Positions 5,711 through 48,839 of a stretch of DNA of 64,000 bases are shown one piece after another. A program made the translations under genes and the position numbers. The notes beneath the pieces were generated by a model. The model made no database searches. It was not told the origin of the DNA and saw nothing but the letters and a program-made list of their open reading frames with translations. The stretch's first letter is position 1. Each line of letters starts with the position of its first letter. The DNA is from Minisyncoccota bacterium (GTDB lineage Bacteria; Patescibacteriota; Minisyncoccia; Phycocordibacterales; DATDSR01), in contig DATDVE010000023.1 in the NCBI GenBank assembly GCA_036517655.1, forward strand, positions 1,358-65,357, read 5' to 3'.

Positions 5711-5747
5711 CAAAACGGACCACTTGCGCGGTCCGTTTTGATTTTTG
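5711..5747 (+). terminator. rho-independent terminator hairpin (AAACGGACC...GGTCCGTTT followed by T-tract)
   Basis: 9-bp stem, 6-nt loop, followed by TTTTGATTTTTGTTG directly after the stop of the 4544..5707 CDS. Confidence 0.6.
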
Positions 5748-6215
5748 TTGTACGTGCCTATAAGCCGGATTCTGTCCTCCCTTGCGGGATGGATAATCAT
5801 TTGTCTTGATCCGATATTGCTATCGAGATTCTTTGCGAGCACTCTGCCAATCTTGCCCACCGCAGGTGGTTGCAATGATTGAGCACCCTTCCGTAGCCTT
5901 GGCGAAGGAGGGCGGGTAACCCTACTACGCTAAAGCTTCGCAGGGCTCTCAATTTTGCAGCTGCCAGCGGCAGGCAAAATTGGAGCACGACTCTTGCACA
6001 CAGGTAAGTATTTTGCCGTTTCATCCGAACTTAATCGGTTCGTCACTGTTCGCAACTCTTGGATTGCTCCAGATGGGCATTACCCACTACCTTCTCCCAC
6101 TTCGCACAAGGCTTCGCGGGACGTGTGTCCGGACTTTCCTCCCCACTTCGCACAAGGCTTCGCGGGGCGATTATCCGGCACGTACATGATCAATTATATC
6201 ATATCTAGGCTACAA
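5745..6215 (-). ncRNA. rnpB: RNase P RNA (bacterial type), approximate ends
   Basis: Minus strand carries the universally conserved P4 halves GGAGGAAAGUCCGGAC (revcomp of 6127-6142) and ACAGAAUCCGGCUUAUAG (revcomp of 5758-5775), about 365 nt apart, which is the right spacing and order for RNase P RNA. Confidence 0.7.
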
Positions 6216-22519: not shown

Positions 22520-23644
22520 TCATTTATACAGTGACAGATTGCCGCTTGCTTTGAGTTCTGCGAAGGCGGAAGTATCAGAATGAAGTAGAAACTCGGGGTG
22601 CAGATATGCTTGTCCTGCGAAGCCTAGGCGAAGTAGGGCTGCGATGCCGATCATGGTGGCATTGTCGCCCGTGAACTTCAGGTCGGGTAAGTGCAGAGCA
22701 ACCTCCCGTGGCTGACTGTCAGCCACGGGGCCGACAGTCAGCCTAAGATGATCACGAATTGTTTTATTAGCTATTACCCCACCGCCGACCAGCAAGCTTT
22801 TGGCTCCGTATTTAGTAATAGCATCAGTTGTTTTCTTGATCAGCACTTCTGTCACAGCCTGCTCGAATTCATGCGCGATTGCTATTTTTTGCTCATCTGT
22901 GAGTTCACCTTTATTTTCTTCTTTAAGTTTTTTTGCTAGATAGAGAACAGCAGTTTTTAAACCAGAAAACGAGTAATCCAAATCGCCCGAATGTAGCATT
23001 GGCCTCGGGAGCGATATTTTGATATTTGGATATTTAGATGTTTCGAAATGAGATGCTAGTCTGGAGATTTCTGGACCTCCTGGATAGGGCAAGCCGAGTA
23101 TGCGCGCAACTTTATCAAACGCTTCGCCTACAGCATCGTCTCGAGTGTTGCCAACCACTTCGTAACTACCCATCTCACGCATTAACACAAGTTGTGTATG
23201 CCCACCTGATATAAGTAATGCAATTGCCGGGAGTTCTAGTTTGCAAATTTCAAATTGCTCATTGCTCATTCGTTTCAGCAAAGCTGAAACGATATGTCCT
23301 TCCAGATGATCCGTGGCAACCAAAGGCACATTCCACTTCATGGATAATCCGCGAGCAAAGTTAATCCCTTCCCAAAGCGCCGGCTCGAGGCCGGGACCAT
23401 ATGTTACGGCAATCAAGTCAACCTTAATTCCTAATTCATTATTCATAATTCGCGCAAGAATCTCCGGCAGATTCTTGGCATGCTCGCGCTTGGCAAGCAT
23501 CGGTACCACCCCGCCCCACTCTTTGTGAACATTTATCTGACTCGAGACTTCGTGTGCAAGCACATCGAAAAGTTTGCCATCGCTAGTCTCAAGTAAAGAG
23601 ATAGCAGTCTCATCGCACGAAGTTTCTATCGCCAGAATTCTCAT
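22520..23644 (-). CDS. tsaD: tRNA N6-adenosine threonylcarbamoyltransferase TsaD (Kae1/Gcp family)
   Basis: MRILAIETSCDETAISLLE N-terminus, His-pair metal site (HLEGH), 375 aa from the ATG at 23644; the longer ORF would run into tRNA-Ser. Confidence 0.85.
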   Translation of the reverse strand: MRILAIETSCDETAISLLETSDGKLFDVLAHEVSSQINVHKEWGGVVPMLAKREHAKNLPEILARIMNNELGIKVDLIAVTYGPGLEPALWEGINFARGLSMKWNVPLVATDHLEGHIVSALLKRMSNEQFEICKLELPAIALLISGGHTQLVLMREMGSYEVVGNTRDDAVGEAFDKVARILGLPYPGGPEISRLASHFETSKYPNIKISLPRPMLHSGDLDYSFSGLKTAVLYLAKKLKEENKGELTDEQKIAIAHEFEQAVTEVLIKKTTDAITKYGAKSLLVGGGVIANKTIRDHLRLTVGPVADSQPREVALHLPDLKFTGDNATMIGIAALLRLGFAGQAYLHPEFLLHSDTSAFAELKASGNLSLYK

Positions 23645-39207: not shown

Positions 39208-39855
39208 TTATTCATTCATCAAAATTTCCTTCAATTCAGCGTAGTCATCTCTTTTACGTATCATCTCGGTAAGTGCATCAAGTGCGAAGATCCTATAGTC
39301 ATCTTTTGAATCAAACTGTTCAAGCACTATTTCCTTTGCGCAAATACCTTGAATATTTGTCGTATATTCTAACCAACTCGATCTCACCAACTCAGCGCCC
39401 TGGGCGCTAAGTTGGTGGACTCGGTCGTTTAGGTTTACATAGGCGCTTCCATGAACCAAATGTTCATTCGTTGTTATGTGCTTGGCCCTGAACGGCCCCT
39501 GGAAAAGTGGCCCGCTACGTTTATTTTTCTTGTTAAAGTACCAGGAATATCCTCCCATCACTTTCATCATAAATTTACTGATACCGTGATCCGCGATTTG
39601 CTTTAAAATAAGATGAAAATGGTTTGGGTTGATGCAATAAGCAATTATCTCAACAAGAGGGTCACTCTTCTTAATTTTGTTCTGATTAGAAAAATTTAAT
39701 TCGTAAAGACCACCTTCTGGCTCGACCTGGTTGAATATATCGATGCACGTTACCAATCTTTCCGAATTTTCGGGTGTCATAACGATTTGCCTTTTGTCTA
39801 CACCTCTATTAAAGACATGATAAATTTCACCAGGAGCCAAGTTTTGTTTTCTCAT
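39208..39855 (-). mobile_element. HUH-Y1 transposase gene, RAYT/IS200-like, copy 2 (start trimmed to align with copy 1)
   Basis: HUH motif NPNHFHLIL, Tyr region SAYVNLN; about 50% identical to copy 1; the annotated longer ORF would translate through the upstream hairpin. Confidence 0.75.
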
Positions 39856-39868
39856 GTGCGAATGATAA

Positions 39869-39893
39869 CACTTAGCGCCCAGGGCGCTAAGTG
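39869..39893. repeat. REP-like hairpin CACTTAGCGCC-CAG-GGCGCTAAGTG upstream of RAYT copy 2
   Basis: Identical to 39181-39205. Confidence 0.8.
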
Positions 39894-39947
39894 GGACGTG
39901 GGGATAGAGAGGGCGGTGTTTTCTAGTGATCTGATACAATATAGGGG

Positions 39948-40451
39948 ATGACAAACTTCGCTTCACCGGCTTTAAATATTAGCCACTTGCACTTGCGGCC
40001 GGGGAACATTGTTGCTGATCTCGGGGCAGGCTCTGGACACTACGCTATTGCCCTGGCCGATAAGCTCCAAGAATTGGGCAAGGGGCATGTGTACGCGGTA
40101 GACGTGCAGAAGCATTATCTGGAAAAGATTAAACAAGAAGCGGACAAAAAAGGATTAGGTAATTTAAGCGTAATTTGGGGCGATGTTGATGTATCTGGGG
40201 GAACGAAGCTTGCCAATCATGTTGCCGACGCAGTTGTGATCTCGAATGTGCTTTTTCAAACGCAGACGAGAAAAGAATTTTTGAAAGAGGCAAGTAGAAT
40301 CTTGAAGCCTGGTGGCGAAATGCTTATCATAGACTGGCAAGATAAGCTTAAACCTCACGAAGTGCTAGATATTTTGCCAGCCGGGATTAGCAAAGTGAGC
40401 GAATTTGACGCCGGCTCGCATCATTTCGGACTCTTACTTCGTAAATCATGA
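39948..40451 (+). CDS. class I SAM-dependent methyltransferase
   Basis: 167 aa; motif I VADLGAGSGHYA; acidic post-I residue; motif II-like region. Confidence 0.7.
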   Translation: MTNFASPALNISHLHLRPGNIVADLGAGSGHYAIALADKLQELGKGHVYAVDVQKHYLEKIKQEADKKGLGNLSVIWGDVDVSGGTKLANHVADAVVISNVLFQTQTRKEFLKEASRILKPGGEMLIIDWQDKLKPHEVLDILPAGISKVSEFDAGSHHFGLLLRKS

Positions 40452-40468
40452 ATCATAAATCATAAATC

Positions 40469-41770
40469 GTGAAGTCATTCCAAACAATTCTTTTGATAGT
40501 TTTTGCCTTCTTTATTGTGGGGGCTGTGCTTATATTTTCGGGCGTTTTGGGTGGGGGTAGCGGCTCACAGGACAAGCTTATTGCGCAGCCAGTAATAATG
40601 TGGGGCACGGTCTCTAAGTCTACGATGGAAGATATCTTGCAGAAGGCTATAGATGCCGGGGACAAGTTCGAGATTACCTATGTGGAGAAACGAGCCGACA
40701 GCTTCGAAGCGGAACTTATTGATGCTCTGGCCTCGAACAAAGGGCCAGATCTAATCCTTGCGCCGCATACTCTTGTTTTGAAGCAACGGGACAAGCTTCT
40801 GCCACTGCCCGAGACGGCTTTCTCAAGGCGCCTCTTCATGGACAGTTTCGTTGAGGCCGGCGAGACGTTGCTTGGGACAGACCAGGAAGGTGGTGAGAGC
40901 ATTGTGCTTGGATTGCCCCTTTTCCTAGATCCAATAGTTATGTACTGGAATCGTGACATGTTCACTAAGGCGGGCTTATCCGCTCCGCCTTCCACTTGGC
41001 TCGAGGTTCAACTTCTGCCAGAGCGCCTGACCAAGCTCGACGAGCGGGGCAATATCGTAGAGGGCGCTGTCGGTCTCGGGGGTGTCAATAATGTGAGTCA
41101 CTTCAAGGAGATCCTCTCCGCCCAGATTATGCAGACTGGTAACAAGATCGTCACGTTTGCCCTAGGGCGGGCTTCTGTCGTACTGGCAGAGGGTACCAAT
41201 GCGGAATCAGCTCTGCGCTTCTACTCCGAATTCGGCAACCCAAGTCTACCCAAGTATTCCTGGAACTCTGCCAAGCGCAGCTCGCTTGACGAATTCATAG
41301 CAGGCAAGCTTGCGATCTACTTCGGCTTTGGTAGTGAACTGGGGATAATCGAGGCTCGCAACCCACACCTTAACTTCGATACGGCCAATTTCCCACAGAT
41401 CTCAAGCGGTGAGCGCCGTCTCACATATGCAGATGTATACACACTCGCTGTTATCAAGAATTCGTCCGTGCAGAATGCGGCCTATGCCGTGGCCTATCGC
41501 ATGTCACTTGGTGTTGCGGCTGATATAGCGGGGAGTGAGTTGCGCTTGCCTCCCGCCCGTCGTGACCTCCTCTCTGTGGCCGATGAGGATCCGAATGTGG
41601 CTCTCTTCGAGTCCGCGGCCGTAATCAGCAAGACCTGGTTTGATCCCAACTGGGTAGTGACGAGGAATATCTTCGCCGATATGATAGAATCTGTATTAAT
41701 AGGCAAGTTAAGTCCGAGCAGCGCAGTGTCGGCGGCAAGCGCCCGCATCCAAGACTTGTTAAATATATAA
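40469..41770 (+). CDS. membrane-anchored extracellular solute-binding-like protein
   Basis: 433 aa; N-terminal TM helix then SBP_bac_1-like fold hints (IVMYWNRDMFTKAGL); GTG start. Confidence 0.45.
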   Translation: MKSFQTILLIVFAFFIVGAVLIFSGVLGGGSGSQDKLIAQPVIMWGTVSKSTMEDILQKAIDAGDKFEITYVEKRADSFEAELIDALASNKGPDLILAPHTLVLKQRDKLLPLPETAFSRRLFMDSFVEAGETLLGTDQEGGESIVLGLPLFLDPIVMYWNRDMFTKAGLSAPPSTWLEVQLLPERLTKLDERGNIVEGAVGLGGVNNVSHFKEILSAQIMQTGNKIVTFALGRASVVLAEGTNAESALRFYSEFGNPSLPKYSWNSAKRSSLDEFIAGKLAIYFGFGSELGIIEARNPHLNFDTANFPQISSGERRLTYADVYTLAVIKNSSVQNAAYAVAYRMSLGVAADIAGSELRLPPARRDLLSVADEDPNVALFESAAVISKTWFDPNWVVTRNIFADMIESVLIGKLSPSSAVSAASARIQDLLNI

Positions 41771-41772
41771 AA

Positions 41773-42114
41773 ATGGCATTAGTTGATTGCAACGGAAAAG
41801 TTGTTGGAGAAGGGGCAGACGCAAAATTCCTTGATGGCTGTACACTTCAAGATTTGGGTGTACTGATTGTGAAGATTTTTGACTACATGATCGACATTGT
41901 GTTCTTGCTTGCAGTGCTGGGCATTGCCGTGGGCGGTTTGTACATAATTTTCGGTGGGGCAAGCGAAGGCAATCGCATCCAGGGCAAGAGCATTATTGGC
42001 TCCTCTATCTTGGGCCTATTTGTAGCGGCCGCAGCCTGGGTGATTGTGAACACAATTCTGGTTGGCTTGGGAGCAGAAGGCTTCCGGAATCCGCTTAAAG
42101 TAGGAATATTTTAA
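41773..42114 (+). CDS. two-TM pilin-like protein (TrbC/VirB2 / T4SS-pilin-like family), paralog 1
   Basis: 113 aa; hairpin of two long hydrophobic helices; first of 8 tandem paralogs. Confidence 0.45.
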   Translation: MALVDCNGKVVGEGADAKFLDGCTLQDLGVLIVKIFDYMIDIVFLLAVLGIAVGGLYIIFGGASEGNRIQGKSIIGSSILGLFVAAAAWVIVNTILVGLGAEGFRNPLKVGIF

Positions 42115-42123
42115 ACAAGAAAT

Positions 42124-42459
42124 ATGCAAAGAATATTAGAATTTTTCACCCAGACCACCTATGCACAGATCACGAGCAAGGGCGGTTCGTCAGTTTTCAA
42201 AAATCCTCTTGGGGGAACCACGAACTTTACCGAACTTCTCAACAAAGTCCTCGAGGTGATAATTGCCATCGGCGTGCCAATACTAGTAGTCTTCATTGTC
42301 TACGCAGGGTTCCTCTTCGTGACGGCTCAAGGCAATGAGACTAAACTCGAGAAGGCTAAGGCGTCTCTCTTCTGGGCGATCATTGGCGGCGCGGTCTTGA
42401 TTGGGGCCAAAGTTATAGCCACGGCGATCCAAGATACTGTGGGAGTAATCGGCCCTTGA
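42124..42459 (+). CDS. two-TM pilin-like protein, paralog 2
   Basis: 111 aa; TM1 - short polar loop (TAQGNETKLEKAKASLFWAIIGG) - TM2. Confidence 0.5.
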   Translation: MQRILEFFTQTTYAQITSKGGSSVFKNPLGGTTNFTELLNKVLEVIIAIGVPILVVFIVYAGFLFVTAQGNETKLEKAKASLFWAIIGGAVLIGAKVIATAIQDTVGVIGP

Positions 42460-42490
42460 TCAAGCTTCTTATTTAACATGTATAGAATAT

Positions 42491-42787
42491 ATGAATGAAG
42501 CGGCAGCATTCAAAATAATAGTGGGCAAGGTCCTGATACAGTTACAGTTTATCCCCCCTTTCCTTGTGGGTCTGGCTCTAGTCTATTTCATATATTCTGT
42601 TGTGCTCGTGATCAAGAATTCTGGCGACGAAGCTAAACTAACAGAGAGCAAGAAGAGCATGACATTCGGTATCGTGGCTCTCTTTATTATGATCTCATTG
42701 TGGGGTTTGGCTACTGCCCTGCGGAGTACCTTCCAGCTCGACGATGGTTCGGTTAATCAGGGCAAGATAGATAGCCTGTGGAAATAG
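42491..42787 (+). CDS. two-TM pilin-like protein, paralog 3
   Basis: 98 aa; loop NSGDEAKLTESKKSMTFGIVALFIMISLWGL matches the family pattern. Confidence 0.5.
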   Translation: MNEAAAFKIIVGKVLIQLQFIPPFLVGLALVYFIYSVVLVIKNSGDEAKLTESKKSMTFGIVALFIMISLWGLATALRSTFQLDDGSVNQGKIDSLWK

Positions 42788-42887
42788 TGCTATCCAGAAA
42801 TATATGGGGGTGTATAATTGCCCTAGCCTCAAAGTAGGCATGAATTAGTGGTTAAAAATTAATAGCGTATTAATAATAAGTAATAAA

Positions 42888-43244
42888 ATGACTAAAGCTA
42901 AGATAACCGCAGCCGCTCTCTCCTTTGCCATGCTTGCGCCTATGTCGGCACTTGCAGTGGGGGAGAACCTGGAGAACTTGTTGTCGTTGATTAAGCGTCT
43001 CGTATCCGGCGCGATCCCAGTTCTGGTGGGTCTTGCCCTCATCTTCTTTATAGTTGGCTTGATTCGCTTCGTAATCGCGGGCGACGCCGAGAAGCGTGAG
43101 GACGGCAAGAAGATGATGTGGTGGGGTATTGTGGCCCTCTTCGTGATTGTCTCGATCTGGGGCATCGTCGAATTCATCGCCAGCACTCTTGGTATAACTA
43201 AGGAAGGACCTATCACTCCTCCTGGAGTAGTGGGTGTCCAGTAG
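42888..43244 (+). CDS. two-TM pilin-like protein, paralog 4 (signal peptide-like N-terminus)
   Basis: 118 aa; AGDAEKREDGKKMMWWGIVALFVIVSIWGIV family signature. Confidence 0.55.
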   Translation: MTKAKITAAALSFAMLAPMSALAVGENLENLLSLIKRLVSGAIPVLVGLALIFFIVGLIRFVIAGDAEKREDGKKMMWWGIVALFVIVSIWGIVEFIASTLGITKEGPITPPGVVGVQ

Positions 43245-43253
43245 ACATAAGTT

Positions 43254-43526
43254 GTGAACGAGTACTTAGCCGCAGTTCCCGCGGCAGTGGGCAAGATCAA
43301 GACAGAGATCGTCAACCCTATACTGAAGCTCTTGATTGCGCTTGCTGTAATATACTTCCTCTTCGGGGTGGTTAAGTACTTTATTGGTGCGCGCGAGAGG
43401 GCTGATTCGCAAGGCGCGGCCGAAGGCAAGAATCACATGCTCTGGGGTATCATAGGTGTAGCTATTACTATCTCGGCCTTCGGCATAGTTAATCTGATCG
43501 CAAGTTTCGTCGGGGAGGTAAGTTAA
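43254..43526 (+). CDS. two-TM pilin-like protein, paralog 5
   Basis: 90 aa; GARERADSQGAAEGKNHMLWGIIGVAITISAFGIV. Confidence 0.55.
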   Translation: MNEYLAAVPAAVGKIKTEIVNPILKLLIALAVIYFLFGVVKYFIGARERADSQGAAEGKNHMLWGIIGVAITISAFGIVNLIASFVGEVS

Positions 43527-43699
43527 CCCTGTTTCGCCCCACTTCGCTAAAGCTTCGCGGGGTCATTTTGCCAGCAAAATGAAAAACAGCCTTCGCGCCG
43601 TTCCCCTCCCAGCTTATGGCGGGGAAGTGACGGAGCGAAGGCCGTGACTTGAGACAAATGGTCCAGGAGAACGTGAGCGGGGGCGTGCTCGTGGCCGGG

Positions 43700-44713
43700 T
43701 CATGGGTAGAGCCGCATCTGGCCGTGACTGGGGCTCTCCGAGACCCAACAAGGGGTACCCTCGCAGATGCCGTCGTGACAGCAGTTCTCGTCCCAGCGCA
43801 TTGTGATAGCTTCACCCCTGTCTCGTGTCCCGTCGCGGTTCACGATCCAGCCCGTTCCCTTGCCGGCACCCTCCTTCCAAACCACGTGGCCGGTGTCGCC
43901 TTCCACGGTGGTGAGAGTGTAATGTTGCCAGCCTGGGCTATCCGCGACCTTGGTGAGGTCGAAGCGCCCATCCTGGTTCTCGAGGAACTGCGCGACGATA
44001 TGTCTCGTCGGCTTCGGGAGTTCGAACCCGAGCGCTGTTGGTGGAGCCGGTAGCGGCTGCTCGTCGGGGATGTGCGGAAGAACGTTTGCCCATCGCGCCA
44101 GTCGCCGGCCTTCCTTCTCCTCATTCACGGCCTGTGCCTGCTTGACGAGGTCGCGAACGGCTTGATGCCGAGTCGCCGTATCCTTGCCGCGGGCGACAGT
44201 CTCGACTCCGCGGACGACCTTCTTTCCCGTCTCGTGCACAGTGTCCGCGCTCGGCCAGGCCACCATCCTCGCCAGGTTCGCGAGTGCGACGACCGCTATG
44301 ATGAGGCCGGCGTACTGACGCAGCTTCCCCGGAGGAAAGACAACGCCGAGACCGATGTAGGCGACGAACAGAACGCCGCAGAGCAGGAAGCCGTAGCGGT
44401 TCTGCTCCGTCTTGAAGACGAGCACGAAGGTGCCGTAGGTGACCCCCAAGAAATAGGGGAACCACAGCAAGCGAACGAGCATCGCCACCGCCCGAATGTA
44501 GGGGATCTGCGAGGCGAGGGCGACGCCGGTGAAGAAGAGGGCCACGATCGTCGGGGAGATGAACACCACGACGAGCGGAAGAAAGATGTAGACGAGCGTC
44601 AGGACGAGTGCGGGTGTGTCCCAGCCCCACAACCCGCAGGCCGTGATGGCCGCGAGCATGGCGCCGAAGCCGATGATCGTCCACTGTCCGATTGAATCGA
44701 GATACGTTCTCAT
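43700..44713 (-). CDS. hypothetical polytopic membrane protein with Cys-rich C-terminal domain (high-GC island)
   Basis: 337 aa; about 6 TM helices then a soluble domain ending in ...CCHDGICEGTPCWVSE; GC content far above flanks. Confidence 0.45.
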   Translation of the reverse strand: MRTYLDSIGQWTIIGFGAMLAAITACGLWGWDTPALVLTLVYIFLPLVVVFISPTIVALFFTGVALASQIPYIRAVAMLVRLLWFPYFLGVTYGTFVLVFKTEQNRYGFLLCGVLFVAYIGLGVVFPPGKLRQYAGLIIAVVALANLARMVAWPSADTVHETGKKVVRGVETVARGKDTATRHQAVRDLVKQAQAVNEEKEGRRLARWANVLPHIPDEQPLPAPPTALGFELPKPTRHIVAQFLENQDGRFDLTKVADSPGWQHYTLTTVEGDTGHVVWKEGAGKGTGWIVNRDGTRDRGEAITMRWDENCCHDGICEGTPCWVSESPSHGQMRLYP

Positions 44714-45121
44714 TTAGTACCTCCTTCTCCTGATGGGTGGTAGGGGTGGGACTGGCTGGCCGACCGGTCGTGACCGGAAGTACGGCAGCTTGTTGACCAG
44801 CCCCATGAACAACCTGACAGGGCTGATCCGTCGGCCGATCTCGGCCATCTCGCGATCGAAATCCGCGATGGGCTCGGCGACCTTGTCGAAGATCTCGCGA
44901 CCCTGCGCCTTGGCCGTGTCCCAGTCTGGGACACTCTCCCCAACGATGGCCACGAAGCCGTCGTCAGAGCGGCGATCGAGCGCTCTCTTGAGCGCCTCCG
45001 GATCAGAACAGATCCGATCCCAACGCTCCGCCCAGACTTTGAAGCGCTTCAGGAACTTCTCCTGATACGCACCCTCGTCGGTCTTGGCGATCTGGGTGAG
45101 ACTCTTGTCTTTCGTTGGCAT
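44714..45121 (-). CDS. hypothetical protein (high-GC island), start trimmed to the internal ATG
   Basis: 136 aa from MPTKDKSL; charged, helical; the longer ORF overlaps the upstream gene. Confidence 0.35.
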   Translation of the reverse strand: MPTKDKSLTQIAKTDEGAYQEKFLKRFKVWAERWDRICSDPEALKRALDRRSDDGFVAIVGESVPDWDTAKAQGREIFDKVAEPIADFDREMAEIGRRISPVRLFMGLVNKLPYFRSRPVGQPVPPLPPIRRRRY

Positions 45122-45134
45122 GTCTCTCCTCCTT

Positions 45135-45473
45135 CTAGAGAATTCCGTCGCGAAGTGCTTCCCGGGCGTCCTCTCCCGGCTTCTTGGGCTTGTCACCCGC
45201 CTTGCCGAAGAGGTGAACGTACGCATCGGCGTAGATGATACGCTGAATGCGTTCGCGCTGGAAGCGGTTCGGATGGTCGAGCGCGGCGCAAAGGGCGGGG
45301 TAATCCCGCTGTCCGTCCTCGCTCTCGATGAGCGGGGAGACCAGACTGCGGACCGCGTCCGCGTCTTCCTTCTGTTGCTCTCTGCCCTTCTTGTCTCCCA
45401 AGAAGAGCTTTTCGATCACGTACCAGATCCCCTCGTCGAATGGGATCAAGTCTAGCAGCTTGGGCATCTTCAC
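45135..45473 (-). CDS. hypothetical protein (high-GC island)
   Basis: 112 aa; the three island genes are co-oriented with short spacers. Confidence 0.35.
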   Translation of the reverse strand: MKMPKLLDLIPFDEGIWYVIEKLFLGDKKGREQQKEDADAVRSLVSPLIESEDGQRDYPALCAALDHPNRFQRERIQRIIYADAYVHLFGKAGDKPKKPGEDAREALRDGIL

Positions 45474-45722
45474 TTTTCCTTTCTAGATTTAGGACCATTT
45501 GTCAGCGTCCTTGATCTACCCTCAATTATATCACATATTAATACGAAATGCAAGCCCACTTCGCCGATAGGCTTCGCGGGCCACAGGGTTGGGGATAAAC
45601 TGCTTTCTGTGGCTTATTTATGGGGTAAAATTGTGTATACTTGTCCCGTTAGAAGTTACGGTGATTATCTAACGAGATTTTATAAAACCACATAATATTA
45701 CTATGCATAAACTTCTAATGGG

Positions 45723-46070
45723 ATGAGAAACAAAATTCTAGTGCCAGTTTTACTTCTAATTTTGCCGAGTTTCGCTAGTGCTAAGACTATCGGTGATCTC
45801 TTGAAGGACGTAGGTGGCTGGCTTGGCACTTTGTTACCCATCTTAACGGCTCTTGCCCTCGTTGTTTTCATCTGGGGACTTGTTATTTTCATCGGCAAGG
45901 CTGGCGATGAGACGGCTCGCACAGAAGGCAAGCAGCGGATGATCTGGGGCGTGATAGCCCTCTTCGTGATCATCTCGATCTGGGGCTTGGTCACCTTCTT
46001 GCAAGAGACAACTGGCACAGGTGGCTCAAGCGCATTGCCCGCACCCGGTTTACCAGCAGCACCAAAGTGA
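45723..46070 (+). CDS. two-TM pilin-like protein, paralog 6 (signal peptide-like N-terminus)
   Basis: 115 aa; GKAGDETARTEGKQRMIWGVIALFVIISIWGLV. Confidence 0.55.
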   Translation: MRNKILVPVLLLILPSFASAKTIGDLLKDVGGWLGTLLPILTALALVVFIWGLVIFIGKAGDETARTEGKQRMIWGVIALFVIISIWGLVTFLQETTGTGGSSALPAPGLPAAPK

Positions 46071-46363
46071 TGGAAGCAGCAGCAACAGTAGGTTCGATCA
46101 TCGGGGTGGGCATGAGTATTTTGGGTTTGCTCATCCCGCTCATAATCGGGCTTGGCCTTGTGTATTTCATTTGGGGTCTGGTGCAATTTATCGGTAAGGC
46201 TGGTGATGAGGCAGGCAGGACTGAAGGTAAGGCTAAGATGCTCTGGGGCATCATTGCTATCTTCGTGATCGTTTCCGTCTGGGGCCTGGTGGGAATTCTG
46301 CGGGAATCCTTCTTCGGAGGTGGTGCCGACAAGACACCGCCGCCCCCGCAGTTCCAAAGTTAA
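46067..46363 (+). CDS. two-TM pilin-like protein, paralog 7
   Basis: 98 aa; GKAGDEAGRTEGKAKMLWGIIAIFVIVSVWGLV; overlaps the previous stop by 4 nt. Confidence 0.55.
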   Translation: MMEAAATVGSIIGVGMSILGLLIPLIIGLGLVYFIWGLVQFIGKAGDEAGRTEGKAKMLWGIIAIFVIVSVWGLVGILRESFFGGGADKTPPPPQFQS

Positions 46364-46369
46364 TTTCTT

Positions 46370-47146
46370 ATGACCGCGCAAGTTTACGCACAAGAGACTG
46401 GCAAGTACCAGCTACTCGAACAGCTTCCTAGTGGCCCGGAAGTTAATACTAAGAGCACAGAATATTTTGGCACGGCATATAACATTGCCCTAACAGTCAC
46501 GGTGGCTCTTGCCCTCGTCATGATTGTGGTGGGTGGTATTCAGTACACTATCTCTTGGGCCTCGCCCTCGGCAAAGGGAGATGCGAAAAATAGAATCTTG
46601 GGTGCCATCGGGGGACTCATTCTGGCTTTGGTCTCGTATATACTTTTGCATACGATTAATCCCAAACTTGTCACAGAGCAGAATATCAATTTGCCAAGCG
46701 GTGGCAGTTCTGGCGGAGGTGGTTCCTCGGGCGGCGGATCTGGGGGAGGAGCTTTATGCAGCACATGCTTGAGTCAAGCTGATGCGCTCAAGCAGTTAAC
46801 AGTCGCTGGCATTAGCGTTAAAACTGGAGTTGTCCTTGAGGGTATACGCCAAGATACTTTGAATGCTGTTTTCTATGTTAGAAGTAAGTGTAATGCTTGT
46901 ACGATAATAGTTACCTCGGCCCTGGAGGGTACTCATGAAAGTGGTGGACATGATTCGGGATACAAACTTGATGTGCGATTGAATCGTGATCTTGATAATT
47001 TTATCGAGACTAATTTCACTCGTGTTTCCGATAGCAAGACAATGAAGTACAAAAGATACCAGGAAAGCGTAACCGGAGCAGTCTGGATGAAAGAGATGTG
47101 CGCTGCCCCATGTACGCCACACTGGGACGTAGACGGAAAGGGATAA
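46370..47146 (+). CDS. pilin-like N-terminal domain fused via Gly/Ser linker to a putative Zn-peptidase (M15/VanY-like) domain
   Basis: 258 aa; two-TM segment with SPSAKGDAKNRILGAIGGLILALV, linker GGSSGGGGSSGGGSGGG, C-terminal SGGHDSGYKLD (H-x3-G-x3-D) plus later His, as in VanY/M15 DD-peptidases. Confidence 0.4.
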   Translation: MTAQVYAQETGKYQLLEQLPSGPEVNTKSTEYFGTAYNIALTVTVALALVMIVVGGIQYTISWASPSAKGDAKNRILGAIGGLILALVSYILLHTINPKLVTEQNINLPSGGSSGGGGSSGGGSGGGALCSTCLSQADALKQLTVAGISVKTGVVLEGIRQDTLNAVFYVRSKCNACTIIVTSALEGTHESGGHDSGYKLDVRLNRDLDNFIETNFTRVSDSKTMKYKRYQESVTGAVWMKEMCAAPCTPHWDVDGKG

Positions 47147-47152
47147 AAGTAG

Positions 47153-47236
47153 TGCCGAGGGAGAGATTTGAACTCTCAATCCCTTGCGGGAGCTAGCTTC
47201 TAAGGCTAGTGCGTATACCAATTCCGCCACCTCGGC
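47153..47236 (-). tRNA. tRNA-Leu (anticodon TAG)
   Basis: Revcomp GCCGAGGTGGCGGAATTGGTATACGC...CTAGC-CTTAGAA-GCTAG, long variable arm, T-arm GAGAG-TTCAAAT-CTCTC. Confidence 0.85.
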
Positions 47237-47258
47237 AAAAGTCCATGATACTTTGTAA

Positions 47259-48425
47259 TCAGATCGTGTTCAAGAGCGTGCGAGTTTTCGGACCTACCAT
47301 GCCAACTTGCTCAAGATAATTTTTGGCTTGGAAGCTTTTGACTGCTTGCTCGGTGCAAGGACCGAAGTTGCCTGTCATAGGGCAATCTCGCAATGTCTTA
47401 CCCAACGGCGGATACAAACCCAGCTCATTTAGTCTAATTTGCAAAGCTAGGATATCCGGTAAGCCCCTCATCCCCCTAAACAACAATTTAGAAAAATAAA
47501 AGCTCGAGCTTTCTGATTTGGTTACCAGGCCTGCCTGCGCAGGCAGGTATCCAAAAAAGTTCTCGAGAGCTTGGGCTGTCTGTCTGGCAAGGTAATCAAG
47601 ATAAAGTGCGCGAACTTCTGGACTGGCAAACTGTGACTCGTAGATGTAGCTGTACTCTATCAAGAGTGAGGCGTTATCTCGAGTGCCATGTGAGCCGATA
47701 GCAATTAGCTCGCGATCGGGTGTTACACCCAAGTCTTCACCCGGCAATGTGCTTATGGGCATAACTTGAGAGAGTTCGTCGCGTAAGTAGATTGCCAGGG
47801 CTTGGCTCGTGGCGCCATTCGCAAAGCTTGAGTCTGGCACATAGATAGTGAAGCCAATGTGCTCGCCCGGCACGCGCATGTTTGATCTGGGGTAGTCGTT
47901 GATGTGGATGTGCAGGGCAATGTCTATCCGATTGTCGTTGGCAAATTTATTGAGGGCGTAGAGTTCGAAAGCTGTTTGAGCTGGAGCCGTGTTGTGGTAA
48001 ACAGATTGAGTTGTCGCGACTGTCGCAGATTTTGCGGAATTATAATATTTGATCGAAGCATCCCTGAAGGCCGTGATCTCTGCGTGCCCCTCGTCCATGA
48101 AAGCTTGGAACCAAGATGCATATTGCCCAGTTTCGTCACGTGCTACATAAATTTTAAAGTTCTTATCGCTCTCGAGTAGCTTCAAAATTTTGTGGGCGAT
48201 CAACACATTGAGATCTCGTTCGTAGTAATCAGCAAATTGCGTGCCGCCGTCATTCTTGCCGTGCCCGGGCACTATCAATACACGCAAATCGCCCTCACTG
48301 TAGTGCTGCTTGATGTGCTCTATCGAGGACTGCTTGCCATAGAATGGATCGTAAGATGTACCGGCCACATGAGCCTGCGCTGCCGCCGGAATGAGTATAA
48401 GAAATATGAGCGAGTACTTAAACAT
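47259..48425 (-). CDS. N-acetylmuramoyl-L-alanine amidase (Amidase_3) with C-terminal peptidoglycan-binding domain
   Basis: 388 aa; signal peptide; LIVPGHGKNDGG...ALHIHINDYP Amidase_3 pattern; C-terminal PG_binding_1-like LALQIRLNELGLY...AVKSFQAKNYL; carries an in-frame palindromic insert at 47518-47556. Confidence 0.7.
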   Translation of the reverse strand: MFKYSLIFLILIPAAAQAHVAGTSYDPFYGKQSSIEHIKQHYSEGDLRVLIVPGHGKNDGGTQFADYYERDLNVLIAHKILKLLESDKNFKIYVARDETGQYASWFQAFMDEGHAEITAFRDASIKYYNSAKSATVATTQSVYHNTAPAQTAFELYALNKFANDNRIDIALHIHINDYPRSNMRVPGEHIGFTIYVPDSSFANGATSQALAIYLRDELSQVMPISTLPGEDLGVTPDRELIAIGSHGTRDNASLLIEYSYIYESQFASPEVRALYLDYLARQTAQALENFFGYLPAQAGLVTKSESSSFYFSKLLFRGMRGLPDILALQIRLNELGLYPPLGKTLRDCPMTGNFGPCTEQAVKSFQAKNYLEQVGMVGPKTRTLLNTI

Positions 48426-48429
48426 CGAG

Positions 48430-48502
48430 TCCCCCCAGTAGGGCTCGAACCTACGACCTTATCCTTAAGAGGGATCTGCTCTACCAACTGAGCTATGGGG
48501 GG
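48430..48502 (-). tRNA. tRNA-Lys (anticodon CTT)
   Basis: Revcomp CCCCCCATAGCTCAGTTGGTAGAGC...GATCC-CTCTTAA-GGATA..GTAGG-TTCGAGC-CCTAC-TGGGGGG. Confidence 0.8.
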
Positions 48503-48528
48503 GTAACAAAGACTATCTTAACAAATTA

Positions 48529-48612
48529 TGCTCGGGGTGGGAATCGAACCCACATGACCTTTCGATCACAACATTTTAAGTGTTGCGCGTATACCAATTC
48601 CGCCACCCGAGC
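48529..48612 (-). tRNA. tRNA-Leu (anticodon TAA)
   Basis: Revcomp GCTCGGGTGGCGGAATTGGTATACGCG-CAACA-CTTAAAA-TGTTG, long variable arm, T-arm GTGGG-TTCGATT-CCCAC. Confidence 0.85.
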
Positions 48613-48767
48613 AACGGGAGGCCACGGCGGGAAACGGTCACAACTCTCGGCTCGTCGTCACTTGCCTCGGTCGCGACCCCGCCTCACGAATTCGCAAGCT
48701 TGCGAATTAACGCTCCGGCTTGCGATTCCCGACACACGCAAAATTGTTTGCGTGTTCCTTGGCCTTG

Positions 48768-48839
48768 AGGCCACGGCGGGAATCGCACCCGCGTATAAGG
48801 GATTTGCAGTCCCTTGCCTTACTACTTGGCTACGTGGCC
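48768..48839 (-). tRNA. tRNA-Cys (anticodon GCA)
   Basis: Revcomp GGCCACGTAGCCAAGTAGTAAGGCA-AGGGA-CTGCAAA-TCCCT..GCGGG-TGCGATT-CCCGC-CGTGGCC. Confidence 0.8.

Follow-up and report, generated by a model that had tools for sequence, protein, structure and literature searches.

A VirB2-like pilin array ending in a candidate pilin-anchored peptidoglycan peptidase on a Patescibacteria chromosome

Introduction

Between positions 41773 and 47146 of the 64-kb (64,000 nt) stretch of Minisyncoccota contig DATDVE010000023.1 (assembly GCA_036517655.1) analyzed here, eight co-oriented open reading frames (ORFs) on the + strand encode proteins with a common two-helix pilin architecture, the last of which, paralog 8, carries an additional C-terminal domain. 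The locus is probably a chromosomal operon of a Candidatus Paceibacterota bacterium in which seven genes encode VirB2-like ‘T4SS_pilin’ proteins and the eighth a modular pilin; the products would be assembled by a type IV secretion system (T4SS), paralog 8 serving as a pilin-anchored peptidoglycan peptidase that replaces VirB1. The whole stretch, referred to below as the window and the limit of every absence reported for it, is an ordinary chromosome segment of a member of the Patescibacteria (Candidate Phyla Radiation, CPR).

Few systems have been demonstrated to be indispensable to Patescibacteria as epibionts, and T4SS genes with their pilin arrays are among them. A survey of 3,035 Patescibacteria genomes with the families PF18895 and PF04956 recorded 441 pilin arrays of 2-11 genes, and in 1135 of 1948 assemblies virB4 had pilin genes nearby; VirB1 homologues were rare and poorly linked to virB4, and since they are mostly absent, the passage of the apparatus through a Gram-positive-type wall is an open problem (PMC12102498). 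In S. epibionticum, the pilin series lies inside the T4SS cluster and is essential (PMC10633639), essential ‘peptidase and lysozyme homologues’ adjoin virB4 (PMC12102498), and one protein encoded beside VirB4, SEML1_0007, is itself essential and carries a Hedgehog/DD-peptidase domain according to a structure-based annotation (PMC10633639, supplement). A pilin-fused peptidase family that is uncatalogued in Pfam and NCBIfam, and that lies by VirB4 in many lineages, is a concrete and testable candidate for the crossing of the wall, and suggests that T4SS pilin modules may carry enzymatic cargo.

The array itself is a feature already known for the phylum. Published VirB2-like arrays of Patescibacteria consist of 2-11 genes, at times with one non-pilin gene inside, and show a mean identity of ~25% (PMC12102498, PMC10633639, PMC7427843). 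Like these PF18895 arrays, the present one is tandem, co-oriented, divergent in sequence, and located on the chromosome of a CPR bacterium; it differs from them by the lack of a virB4 gene within 64 kb, by the gene for a solute-binding protein (SBP) that precedes it, by a three-gene foreign cassette on the opposite strand in its interior, and by the pilin-peptidase fusion at its end. No description of the fusion, of its family-wide conservation, or of its linkage to VirB4 was found in the searchable literature.

The pilin array

All eight ORFs reported by a preliminary description of this DNA are present on the + strand. Five of them, paralogs 1 (41773-42114, 113 aa), 2 (42124-42459, 111 aa), 3 (42491-42787, 98 aa), 4 (42888-43244, 118 aa) and 5 (43254-43526, 90 aa), precede the opposite-strand cassette, which is followed by paralogs 6 (45723-46070, 115 aa), 7 (46067-46363, 98 aa if read from a GTG codon, or 97 aa from the ATG at 46070 that is used in public gene calls) and 8 (46370-47146, 258 aa). 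From first to last, the gaps between them amount to 9, 31, 100, 9, 2196, -4 and 6 nt, the start of paralog 7 overlapping the stop codon of paralog 6; spacers of at most 10 nt, which had been described for the whole array save the cassette, are thus found at most junctions but not between paralogs 2 and 3 or paralogs 3 and 4. Hydropathy analysis identifies in every paralog two strong hydrophobic segments of ~25-35 residues with a short charged loop between them, and the alignment yields the consensus ...GDExxRxEGKxxMxWGIIGLFVxISxWGIV, very similar to the one proposed from inspection alone, along with the same helix-loop-helix layout. Identity among the paralogs is ~20-63%, the upper value being that between paralogs 6 and 7, and the proteins differ in their tails, signal peptides and Cys content. 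Paralog 1, for instance, has an N-terminal tail with two Cys residues, no signal peptide, and hydrophobic segments at residues 28-64 and 72-101, while classical Sec-type signal peptides are present only in paralogs 4 (…SALA/VG) and 6 (…FASA/K).

The assignment to the ‘T4SS pilin’ family is borne out by PF18895 (T4SS_pilin, gathering cut-off 26.6 bits), which matches all eight ORFs, seven of them at or above the cut-off: paralogs 1 to 8 score 33.2, 45.4, 20.9, 46.4, 31.9, 45.4, 31.9 and 26.6 bits, paralog 8 standing exactly on the cut-off and paralog 3 below it. Despite its low score, paralog 3 can be aligned with the other paralogs and is 50% identical to paralog 6. TrbC/VirB2 identity in the strict sense, which had also been put forward, is not supported, as the highest PF04956 score is the 25.6 bits of paralog 2 against a cut-off of 27.9 bits; paralog 1 reaches 13.5 bits and the others have no match. 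Paralog 4 also scores 35.9 bits with the NCBIfam model NF045849, ‘pilin-like conjugal transfer protein’, below its cut-off of 40, and among PDB sequences the best match of a profile of the fusion family is Agrobacterium VirB2 (8cue), at a non-significant E value of 0.12. A tblastn search of plasmid records with paralog 4 gave no match. A hidden Markov model (HMM) of the pilins of this lineage identifies exactly these eight ORFs and no others within the window, so that their clustering is far beyond chance. The array fits the pilin-array definition of PMC12102498 as 5 + 3 genes around the three-gene cassette, which slightly stretches the single non-pilin gene that this definition allows.

The signal peptides of paralogs 4 and 6 bear on a different proposal, namely that the locus encodes an array of secreted effectors or toxin subunits, exported through Sec and/or a T4SS by analogy with the ptx/ptl genes of pertussis toxin, as proposed for Saccharibacteria, with paralog 8 as a wall-degrading effector directed against the host. 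McLean et al. (2020) read the TM7x array as one of secreted proteins (PMC7427843), and relatives of the peptidase domain are found in secreted Streptomyces proteins and in giant surface proteins of DPANN archaea. The proposal nevertheless appears quite improbable: each paralog has two long hydrophobic helices, which are typical of membrane or pilin subunits and not of soluble effectors, six of the eight proteins lack a signal peptide, and later literature has recast such arrays as VirB2-like pilins.

The C-terminal domain of paralog 8

In paralog 8, the pilin module (residues 1-107, helices 29-64 and 66-96) and a disordered Gly/Ser linker (residues 108-127) are encoded by positions 46370-46750, and the remainder of the gene, 46751-47146, encodes a C-terminal domain (residues 128-258) with a predicted LAS-type (Hedgehog/DD-peptidase-like) zinc peptidase fold. 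The linker, GGSSGGGGSSGGGSGGG, and the Cys/His-containing domain after it are both as first described. The AlphaFold model of the full-length protein comprises a helical hairpin at residues 29-64 and 66-96 (pLDDT 82-98), a linker below 50, and a compact alpha/beta domain, which when modeled alone reaches a pLDDT of 91.4 and a pTM of 0.86 and appears in the model to adopt the characteristic LAS, or Hedgehog/DD-peptidase, fold.

The motif that had drawn attention to this domain, H-x3-G-x3-D, reads in fact H-x2-G-x3-D, or H-x6-D. In VanX, VanY and the Hedgehog enzymes, zinc binding and catalysis depend on a constellation of H-x6-D and E-x-x-H. The residues that mark LAS enzymes (zinc ligands in H-x(3-6)-D and a distal His, with a catalytic Glu/His) have likely equivalents in paralog 8, where H194, D201 (H194-x6-D201) and H251 are the putative zinc ligands and E242 the putative catalytic residue, and where H189, K199 and D253 are also conserved. 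Across 61-65 homologs, the columns of H194, G197, K199, D201, E242, H251 and D253 are invariant and those of H189, W252, C174 and C177 nearly so, giving the family signature C-x-C ... VTSGTxGxH-x(4-5)-SHxNGYKxDLR ... E-x-x-HWDV.

Membership in M15/VanY, as proposed in the preliminary description, is not upheld. Even with E values of up to 1 allowed, Pfam offers no model for the domain, NCBIfam gives nothing, and none of the M15, M74 and Hedgehog HMMs detects it; among 61 aligned homologs, none matches an M15 Pfam family (VanY PF02557 and its kin) at E <= 0.01. Alignment of the family with VanY by hhalign places SHxNGYKxD in register on SMHExGLAVD, yet with a non-significant probability of 1.3%. 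Searches of PDB sequences by phmmer and hmmsearch with the domain, the fusion-family profile and the lineage pilin profile returned no LAS match, and Foldseek against the PDB yielded no significant match either for the domain alone, with Sonic hedgehog at rank 29, or for the full-length model, where the helical hairpin dominates the outcome (histidine kinases and similar). The domain is best read as an uncatalogued family in its own right within the LAS (Hedgehog/DD-peptidase) superfamily, and not as a demonstrated member of M15/VanY; next to the catalogued branches of the superfamily, which are MEROPS M15 (VanX, VanY, LdcB, the Zn DD-peptidase of S. albus and phage L-Ala-D-Glu peptidases), M74 (MepA) and the N-terminal domain of Hedgehog, it stands apart as a family with a signature of its own.

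Distribution and partners of the domain family

An exhaustive phmmer search with residues 128-258 over 1.84 billion representative sequences (E <= 0.001) placed at least 270 clusters in the family, mostly proteins of 250-320 aa with the domain at the C-terminus, and a PF18895 module is N-terminal to it in 58 of 61 aligned homologs. A genome scan found the pilin-fused form across many Patescibacteria classes, including Paceibacterota, Zambryski-, Wolfe-, Kaiser-, Andersen-, Portnoy- and Saccharibacteria. The domain occurs without a pilin module in Streptomyces, Kribbella, Amycolatopsis, Stackebrandtia and one Treponema metagenome-assembled genome (MAG), and in DPANN archaea it lies inside proteins of 2,300-2,600 aa. 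Its partners point to peptidoglycan: one Streptomyces protein combines a GH25 muramidase, two PG_binding_1 domains and the LAS-like domain, and the homolog P0023 joins a pilin module to the LAS-like domain and SLT. From these co-occurring GH25, PG_binding_1 and SLT domains, paralog 8 is predicted to be a zinc peptidase acting on peptidoglycan peptides.

Two side observations concern the relatives outside the Patescibacteria. In Actinobacteria (Streptomyces, Kribbella, Amycolatopsis; L030-L044, among them L031 8714-10387), the domain has two forms, either small secreted proteins or the C-terminus of GH25 + PG_binding_1 hydrolases, and NCBIfam (RefSeq-type) models provide no name for it there. 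The giant archaeal proteins with the LAS-like domain are exemplified by L025 3932-11803 (2,624 aa, a Pacearchaeota MAG) and L018 4730-11776 (2,349 aa, a Nanoarchaeota MAG); in the former, PT-HINT directly follows the LAS-like domain, which is the Hedgehog arrangement (LAS-fold then Hint) in a DPANN archaeon.

The pilin hairpin also has partners other than the LAS-like domain, P0005 being a fusion of pilin and VanY and P0006 one of pilin with a weak SLT_3 match. Because the module is fused to LAS-like, SLT and VanY domains in several homologs, it appears from these architectures to be a recurrent anchor for wall-hydrolase domains. A more general reading, which is offered tentatively and is rather doubtful, holds that the PF18895 hairpin is a general carrier that mounts wall-cutting enzymes (LAS peptidase, VanY, SLT) on a T4SS pilus or at its base, giving rise to an enzyme-armed filament; if this were true, the filament would open its own wall, possibly drill that of the host, and supply the VirB1 function reported missing in most Patescibacteria. 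The concept of a pilin as a carrier that displays an extra domain, as seen in paralog 8, is shared with the modular type IV pilins PilB and PilC of Streptococcus sanguinis, which have C-terminal functional modules. These belong to a pilin class and an assembly machine that are unrelated to the VirB2-like pilins of T4SSs, and their modules are adhesive, not enzymatic.

Link to type IV secretion in relatives

A link to type IV secretion comes from the loci of relatives. In ten Patescibacteria loci, an ORF of 580-720 aa on the same strand ends 1-2 kb upstream of the fusion gene, and all ten match P-loop_TraG (PF19044), AAA_10 and DUF87, several also matching TraC_F_IV or CagE_TrbE_VirB; their sequences identify them as VirB4-like ATPases. 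With a VirB4 HMM built from these ORFs and applied to the fusion loci and to the window, a same-strand gene for a VirB4-like ATPase was detected 0-4.5 kb upstream of the fusion in 11 of 20 pilin-fused loci, or 11 of 17 when only loci with sufficient upstream sequence are counted. This places the fusion in or beside a T4SS cluster, as expected for a VirB1-type enzyme, in these loci but not in the present window. Locus L043 also has VirB4 upstream, with no pilin module detected on its domain-bearing ORF. In L012, VirB4 is followed by three small ORFs, then by the fusion and an ORF of 404 aa, and dnaA lies ~2.5 kb beyond; this layout agrees with the dnaA-proximal T4SS clusters of PMC12102498.

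No VirB4-like ORF was detected in the loci of the window's own lineage. The absence of VirB4 and VirD4 genes from the window, noted at the outset from the sequence, was confirmed: the VirB4 HMM matches nothing there, VirD4 is likewise lacking, and ORFs of at least 370 aa are all housekeeping genes (ribonucleotide reductase, MurJ, LepA, a class I aminoacyl-tRNA synthetase, TsaD, FtsZ, FtsA, HisRS, S1, GyrA, IF-2, ClpB, XseA and RelA/SpoT). In this lineage, the fusion gene closes the pilin array instead of adjoining VirB4.

This setting could be taken to indicate that the array encodes small membrane proteins that work independently of any T4SS, with paralog 8 as an anchored peptidase that would serve the cell’s own wall growth, division or recycling together with the SBP and an amidase encoded nearby. 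Such an explanation draws on the lack of T4SS genes in the window, on the location of the array amid housekeeping genes that include MurJ, FtsZ and FtsA, on the Amidase_3 and SBP genes at its flanks, on six fusion loci without VirB4 within ~8-10 kb, and on the fact that pilus formation by PF18895 proteins has, to our knowledge, never been demonstrated. It is at odds with the 11 of 17 informative loci in which the fusion gene immediately follows a VirB4 gene of the same strand, with the essential S. epibionticum pilin genes inside a T4SS cluster (PMC10633639), and with the lack of conservation of the amidase neighbor; moreover, eight conserved paralogs are hard to reconcile with a mere anchor. 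Membrane proteins without a T4SS are, for these reasons, considered an unlikely account of the locus, and the pilin-LAS fusion is best seen as a compact, pilin-anchored T4SS wall-opening enzyme.

Peptidoglycan-degrading enzymes that are encoded with a T4SS and presumably serve it include VirB1, PrgK, TraG of pIP501, and SEML1_0006/0007 of S. epibionticum, of which SEML1_0007 adjoins VirB4 and has, as does paralog 8, a Hedgehog/DD-peptidase domain; P0023, with its LAS-like domain and SLT, resembles the bifunctional VirB1 analogues of Gram-positive bacteria. Paralog 8 differs from the established T4SS wall hydrolases in several respects. Its catalytic domain would be of the LAS zinc peptidase class instead of lytic transglycosylase, CHAP or LytM, Pfam detecting in it no SLT domain of the kind found in VirB1-type hydrolases; the fusion is small (~260-320 aa) and anchored by a pilin-type hairpin, not by a signal peptide or a single transmembrane helix; and its gene lies here in a pilin array, not next to VirB4.

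Proposed mechanism

By analogy with F and VirB2 pilins, the hairpins would reside in the membrane, their two termini lying outside and the positively charged (K/R-rich) loop facing the cytoplasm. They would be extracted by a T4SS whose genes would lie elsewhere in the genome, to form a pilus or a pilus-like conduit, in which the paralogs may represent distinct, non-redundant major and minor subunits; paralog 5, the shortest member and the one with the highest ortholog identity in the array (86%), is suggested by these two properties as a candidate major subunit. Paralog 8 would hold its zinc peptidase outside the membrane on a flexible tether, either where assembly takes place or on the filament itself, and could there cut the peptide stems or cross-links of peptidoglycan and so let the apparatus cross its own wall and possibly that of the host; if incorporated into the filament, the peptidase could also act on the host wall. 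Paralog 8 would in this manner do the job of the VirB1, PrgK or TraG lytic enzymes, which is largely unaccounted for in Patescibacteria.

A number of observations weigh against this scheme. VirB4, VirD4 and a recognizable VirB6 are all missing from the window, and six fusion loci with at least 8 kb of upstream sequence have no VirB4 nearby. No paralog attains the PF04956 cut-off, the lineage pilin profile has no significant match among PDB sequences, and a classical signal peptide is found in just two of the eight proteins. We know of no demonstration that PF18895 proteins form pili, the name of the family reflecting remote similarity, and the zinc site is a putative one, deduced from the conservation of its residues.

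Age and stability of the array

In all, 17 contigs, drawn from several samples, encode a protein identical in sequence to paralog 8, and each has the same locus. The nearest distinct relative of paralog 8 is P0001 (38% identity), from another Paceibacterota MAG, whose locus, L005, has an identical gene order: GyrA, a methyltransferase and the SBP are followed by five pilins, three genes on the opposite strand, two pilins and the pilin-peptidase fusion, and then by RbfA and IF-2. Reciprocal best matches between the two loci are one-to-one for all eight paralogs, in the same order, with identities of 62, 70, 52, 62, 86, 59, 64 and 38% from paralog 1 to paralog 8; reference values are 80% for GyrA, 86% for ClpB, 78% for RbfA, 68% for the SBP and 61% for IF-2. 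No paralog has been gained, lost or shuffled between the two, and a check of the conservation of array length, which the preliminary description had advised, thus finds all eight members in the relative. These one-to-one positional orthologs indicate that the divergence of the paralogs predates the split of the two species and that the array is old, stable and fixed in position, its members having apparently evolved since then at roughly housekeeping rates.

Arrays of this kind have also been viewed as a variable surface repertoire, with interchangeable paralogs that would vary antigens or host range, a role put forward for the VirB2 paralogs of Bartonella and Anaplasma. The possibility has been raised for Patescibacteria arrays (PMC12102498), it accords with paralogs that are merely ~20-63% identical to one another, and the preliminary description took the diversification of the present array as a sign of a variable surface or secreted repertoire. 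The comparison with L005 contradicts this view, in that orthologs at corresponding positions are 52-86% identical (38% for paralog 8), within a species pair whose housekeeping proteins range from 61 to 86%, and the set is free of gain, loss and shuffling. In addition, the differing tails, signal peptides and Cys content speak for fixed and distinct roles, and no recombinase or silent-copy arrangement is present. A variable repertoire is therefore very unlikely, and the data favor fixed, distinct roles of the paralogs over interchangeable variants. One-to-one orthology of all array members between two species was not found reported in the literature on these arrays; it would imply distinct structural roles for the eight paralogs, and bears on the modeling of such pili.

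The opposite-strand cassette

Between paralogs 5 and 6 (43527-45722) lie three genes on the - strand, iC (43700-44713, 337 aa), iB (44714-45121, 135 aa) and iA (45135-45467, 110 aa), whose GC content at third codon positions (GC3) is 0.80, 0.78 and 0.78, as compared to 0.45-0.64 in neighboring genes; the overall GC content of the cassette is ~62%, against ~47% nearby. A perfect AGGAGG Shine-Dalgarno sequence precedes two of the three, iC and iB, whereas the host genes are largely without one, and these features suggest an origin from a high-GC donor that uses Shine-Dalgarno sequences. The iC protein begins with a multi-pass membrane part, which a Pro-rich linker connects to a C-terminal domain that contains Cys. 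For none of the three proteins did Pfam, NCBIfam, PHROGs or PADLOC give a match, and tblastn with iC finds nothing in phage records. A homolog search with iC found only iC itself, and a metagenome scan with an iC alignment returned only the L005 contig; among 5.8 billion sequences, the sole relative of iC is its positional counterpart in L005.

In L005, three opposite-strand genes with a GC3 of 0.67-0.70 (against 0.37-0.53) occupy the same site. Their similarity to the cassette is limited to iC, at 24% identity (E 1e-11), with none for iB and iA, and parts of both intergenic flanks are conserved. The cassette had been described as an inserted island, and this same-site counterpart contradicts a private insertion; that the cassette entered this genome alone in recent times, or is a chimera of the assembly, was rejected on the grounds that four independent assemblies share it and a diverged species has the counterpart. 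The cassette is compositionally foreign yet positionally conserved, and represents either an old acquisition that evolves very fast or related cassettes that are exchanged at a fixed site.

The convergent intergenic region on its left (43527-43699) includes a terminator-like hairpin of the cassette operon, and a ~35-nt core of this region is kept in L005; the divergent region on its right (45468-45722) includes a conserved block, GATTATATCACATAT. A perfect 12-nt inverted repeat, with arms at 43653-43664 and 45492-45503 (GACAAATGGTCC / GGACCATTTGTC; in L005, where it is approximately conserved, CAATTGGTCC / GGACCAAATTG), brackets the cassette. No recombinase gene adjoins the repeat, and a single orientation is seen in all assemblies; inversion or cassette exchange at the repeat is a matter of speculation.

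Flanking genes

Upstream of the array, the gene for a membrane-anchored SBP-like protein (40469-41770, + strand; PF01547 SBP_bac_1, E 2.7e-13; 68% identity in L005, with the same adjacency) ends 2 nt before the start of paralog 1, and owing to this spacing it is probably the first gene of the pilin operon. It has no gene for an ABC permease or ATPase next to it, so that an orphan SBP, seemingly translationally coupled to paralog 1, stands alongside T4SS pilins. At the downstream end, the locus is bounded by a tRNA-Leu(TAG) gene (47152-47236, - strand), beyond which a secreted Amidase_3 + PG_binding_1 protein is encoded (47259-48425, - strand), a neighbor only. Pfam confirms both the SBP and the Amidase_3/PG-binding genes that had been noted as flanks of the array, but the latter is absent from L005, where genes of the LAGLIDADG and GIY-YIG types take its position. 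The segment 3' of the array is variable: tRNA-Leu, Amidase_3, tRNA-Lys, tRNA-Leu and tRNA-Cys genes fill 47152-48839 of the window, and the counterpart in L005 (10811-12228) holds LAGLIDADG-like and GIY-YIG homing-endonuclease-like genes. A scan for promoter and terminator consensus sequences gave results not above shuffled expectation.

Further upstream, ~1.8 kb from the array and between gyrA and the methyltransferase gene, a homolog of IS200-like Y1 transposases (PF01797, 26.4 bits) is encoded at 39208-39966 on the - strand; its long ORF overlaps the start of the methyltransferase gene, and public gene calls give it 190 aa.

A hairpin motif shared with RNase P RNA

A hairpin motif, CCCACTTCGC..GCTTCGCGGG, is present in both intergenic flanks of the cassette (43538-43561 and 45555-45580) in the same orientation, where its copies fall in the would-be 5' and 3' untranslated parts of the cassette’s minus-strand transcript. 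Further copies are located at 5921-5944, 6096-6120 and 6142-6166, and a minus-strand copy at 22614-22637. The gene for a bacterial class A RNase P RNA (95.9 bits, E 6e-30; Rfam gathering score 100) spans 5745-6186 on the - strand, and an unusual hairpin, CCCGCGAAGC-loop-GCGAAGUGGG, appears three times in its RNA, once in place of P3 and twice as an insertion. The possibility that the copies of CCCACTTCGC..GCTTCGCGGG around the cassette are target-site duplications was rejected, given that the RNase P RNA gene has three copies of the motif and that the flanks in L005 have none. Its absence there suggests that the motif is either a small interspersed element specific to this genome or an RNA module bound by a protein.

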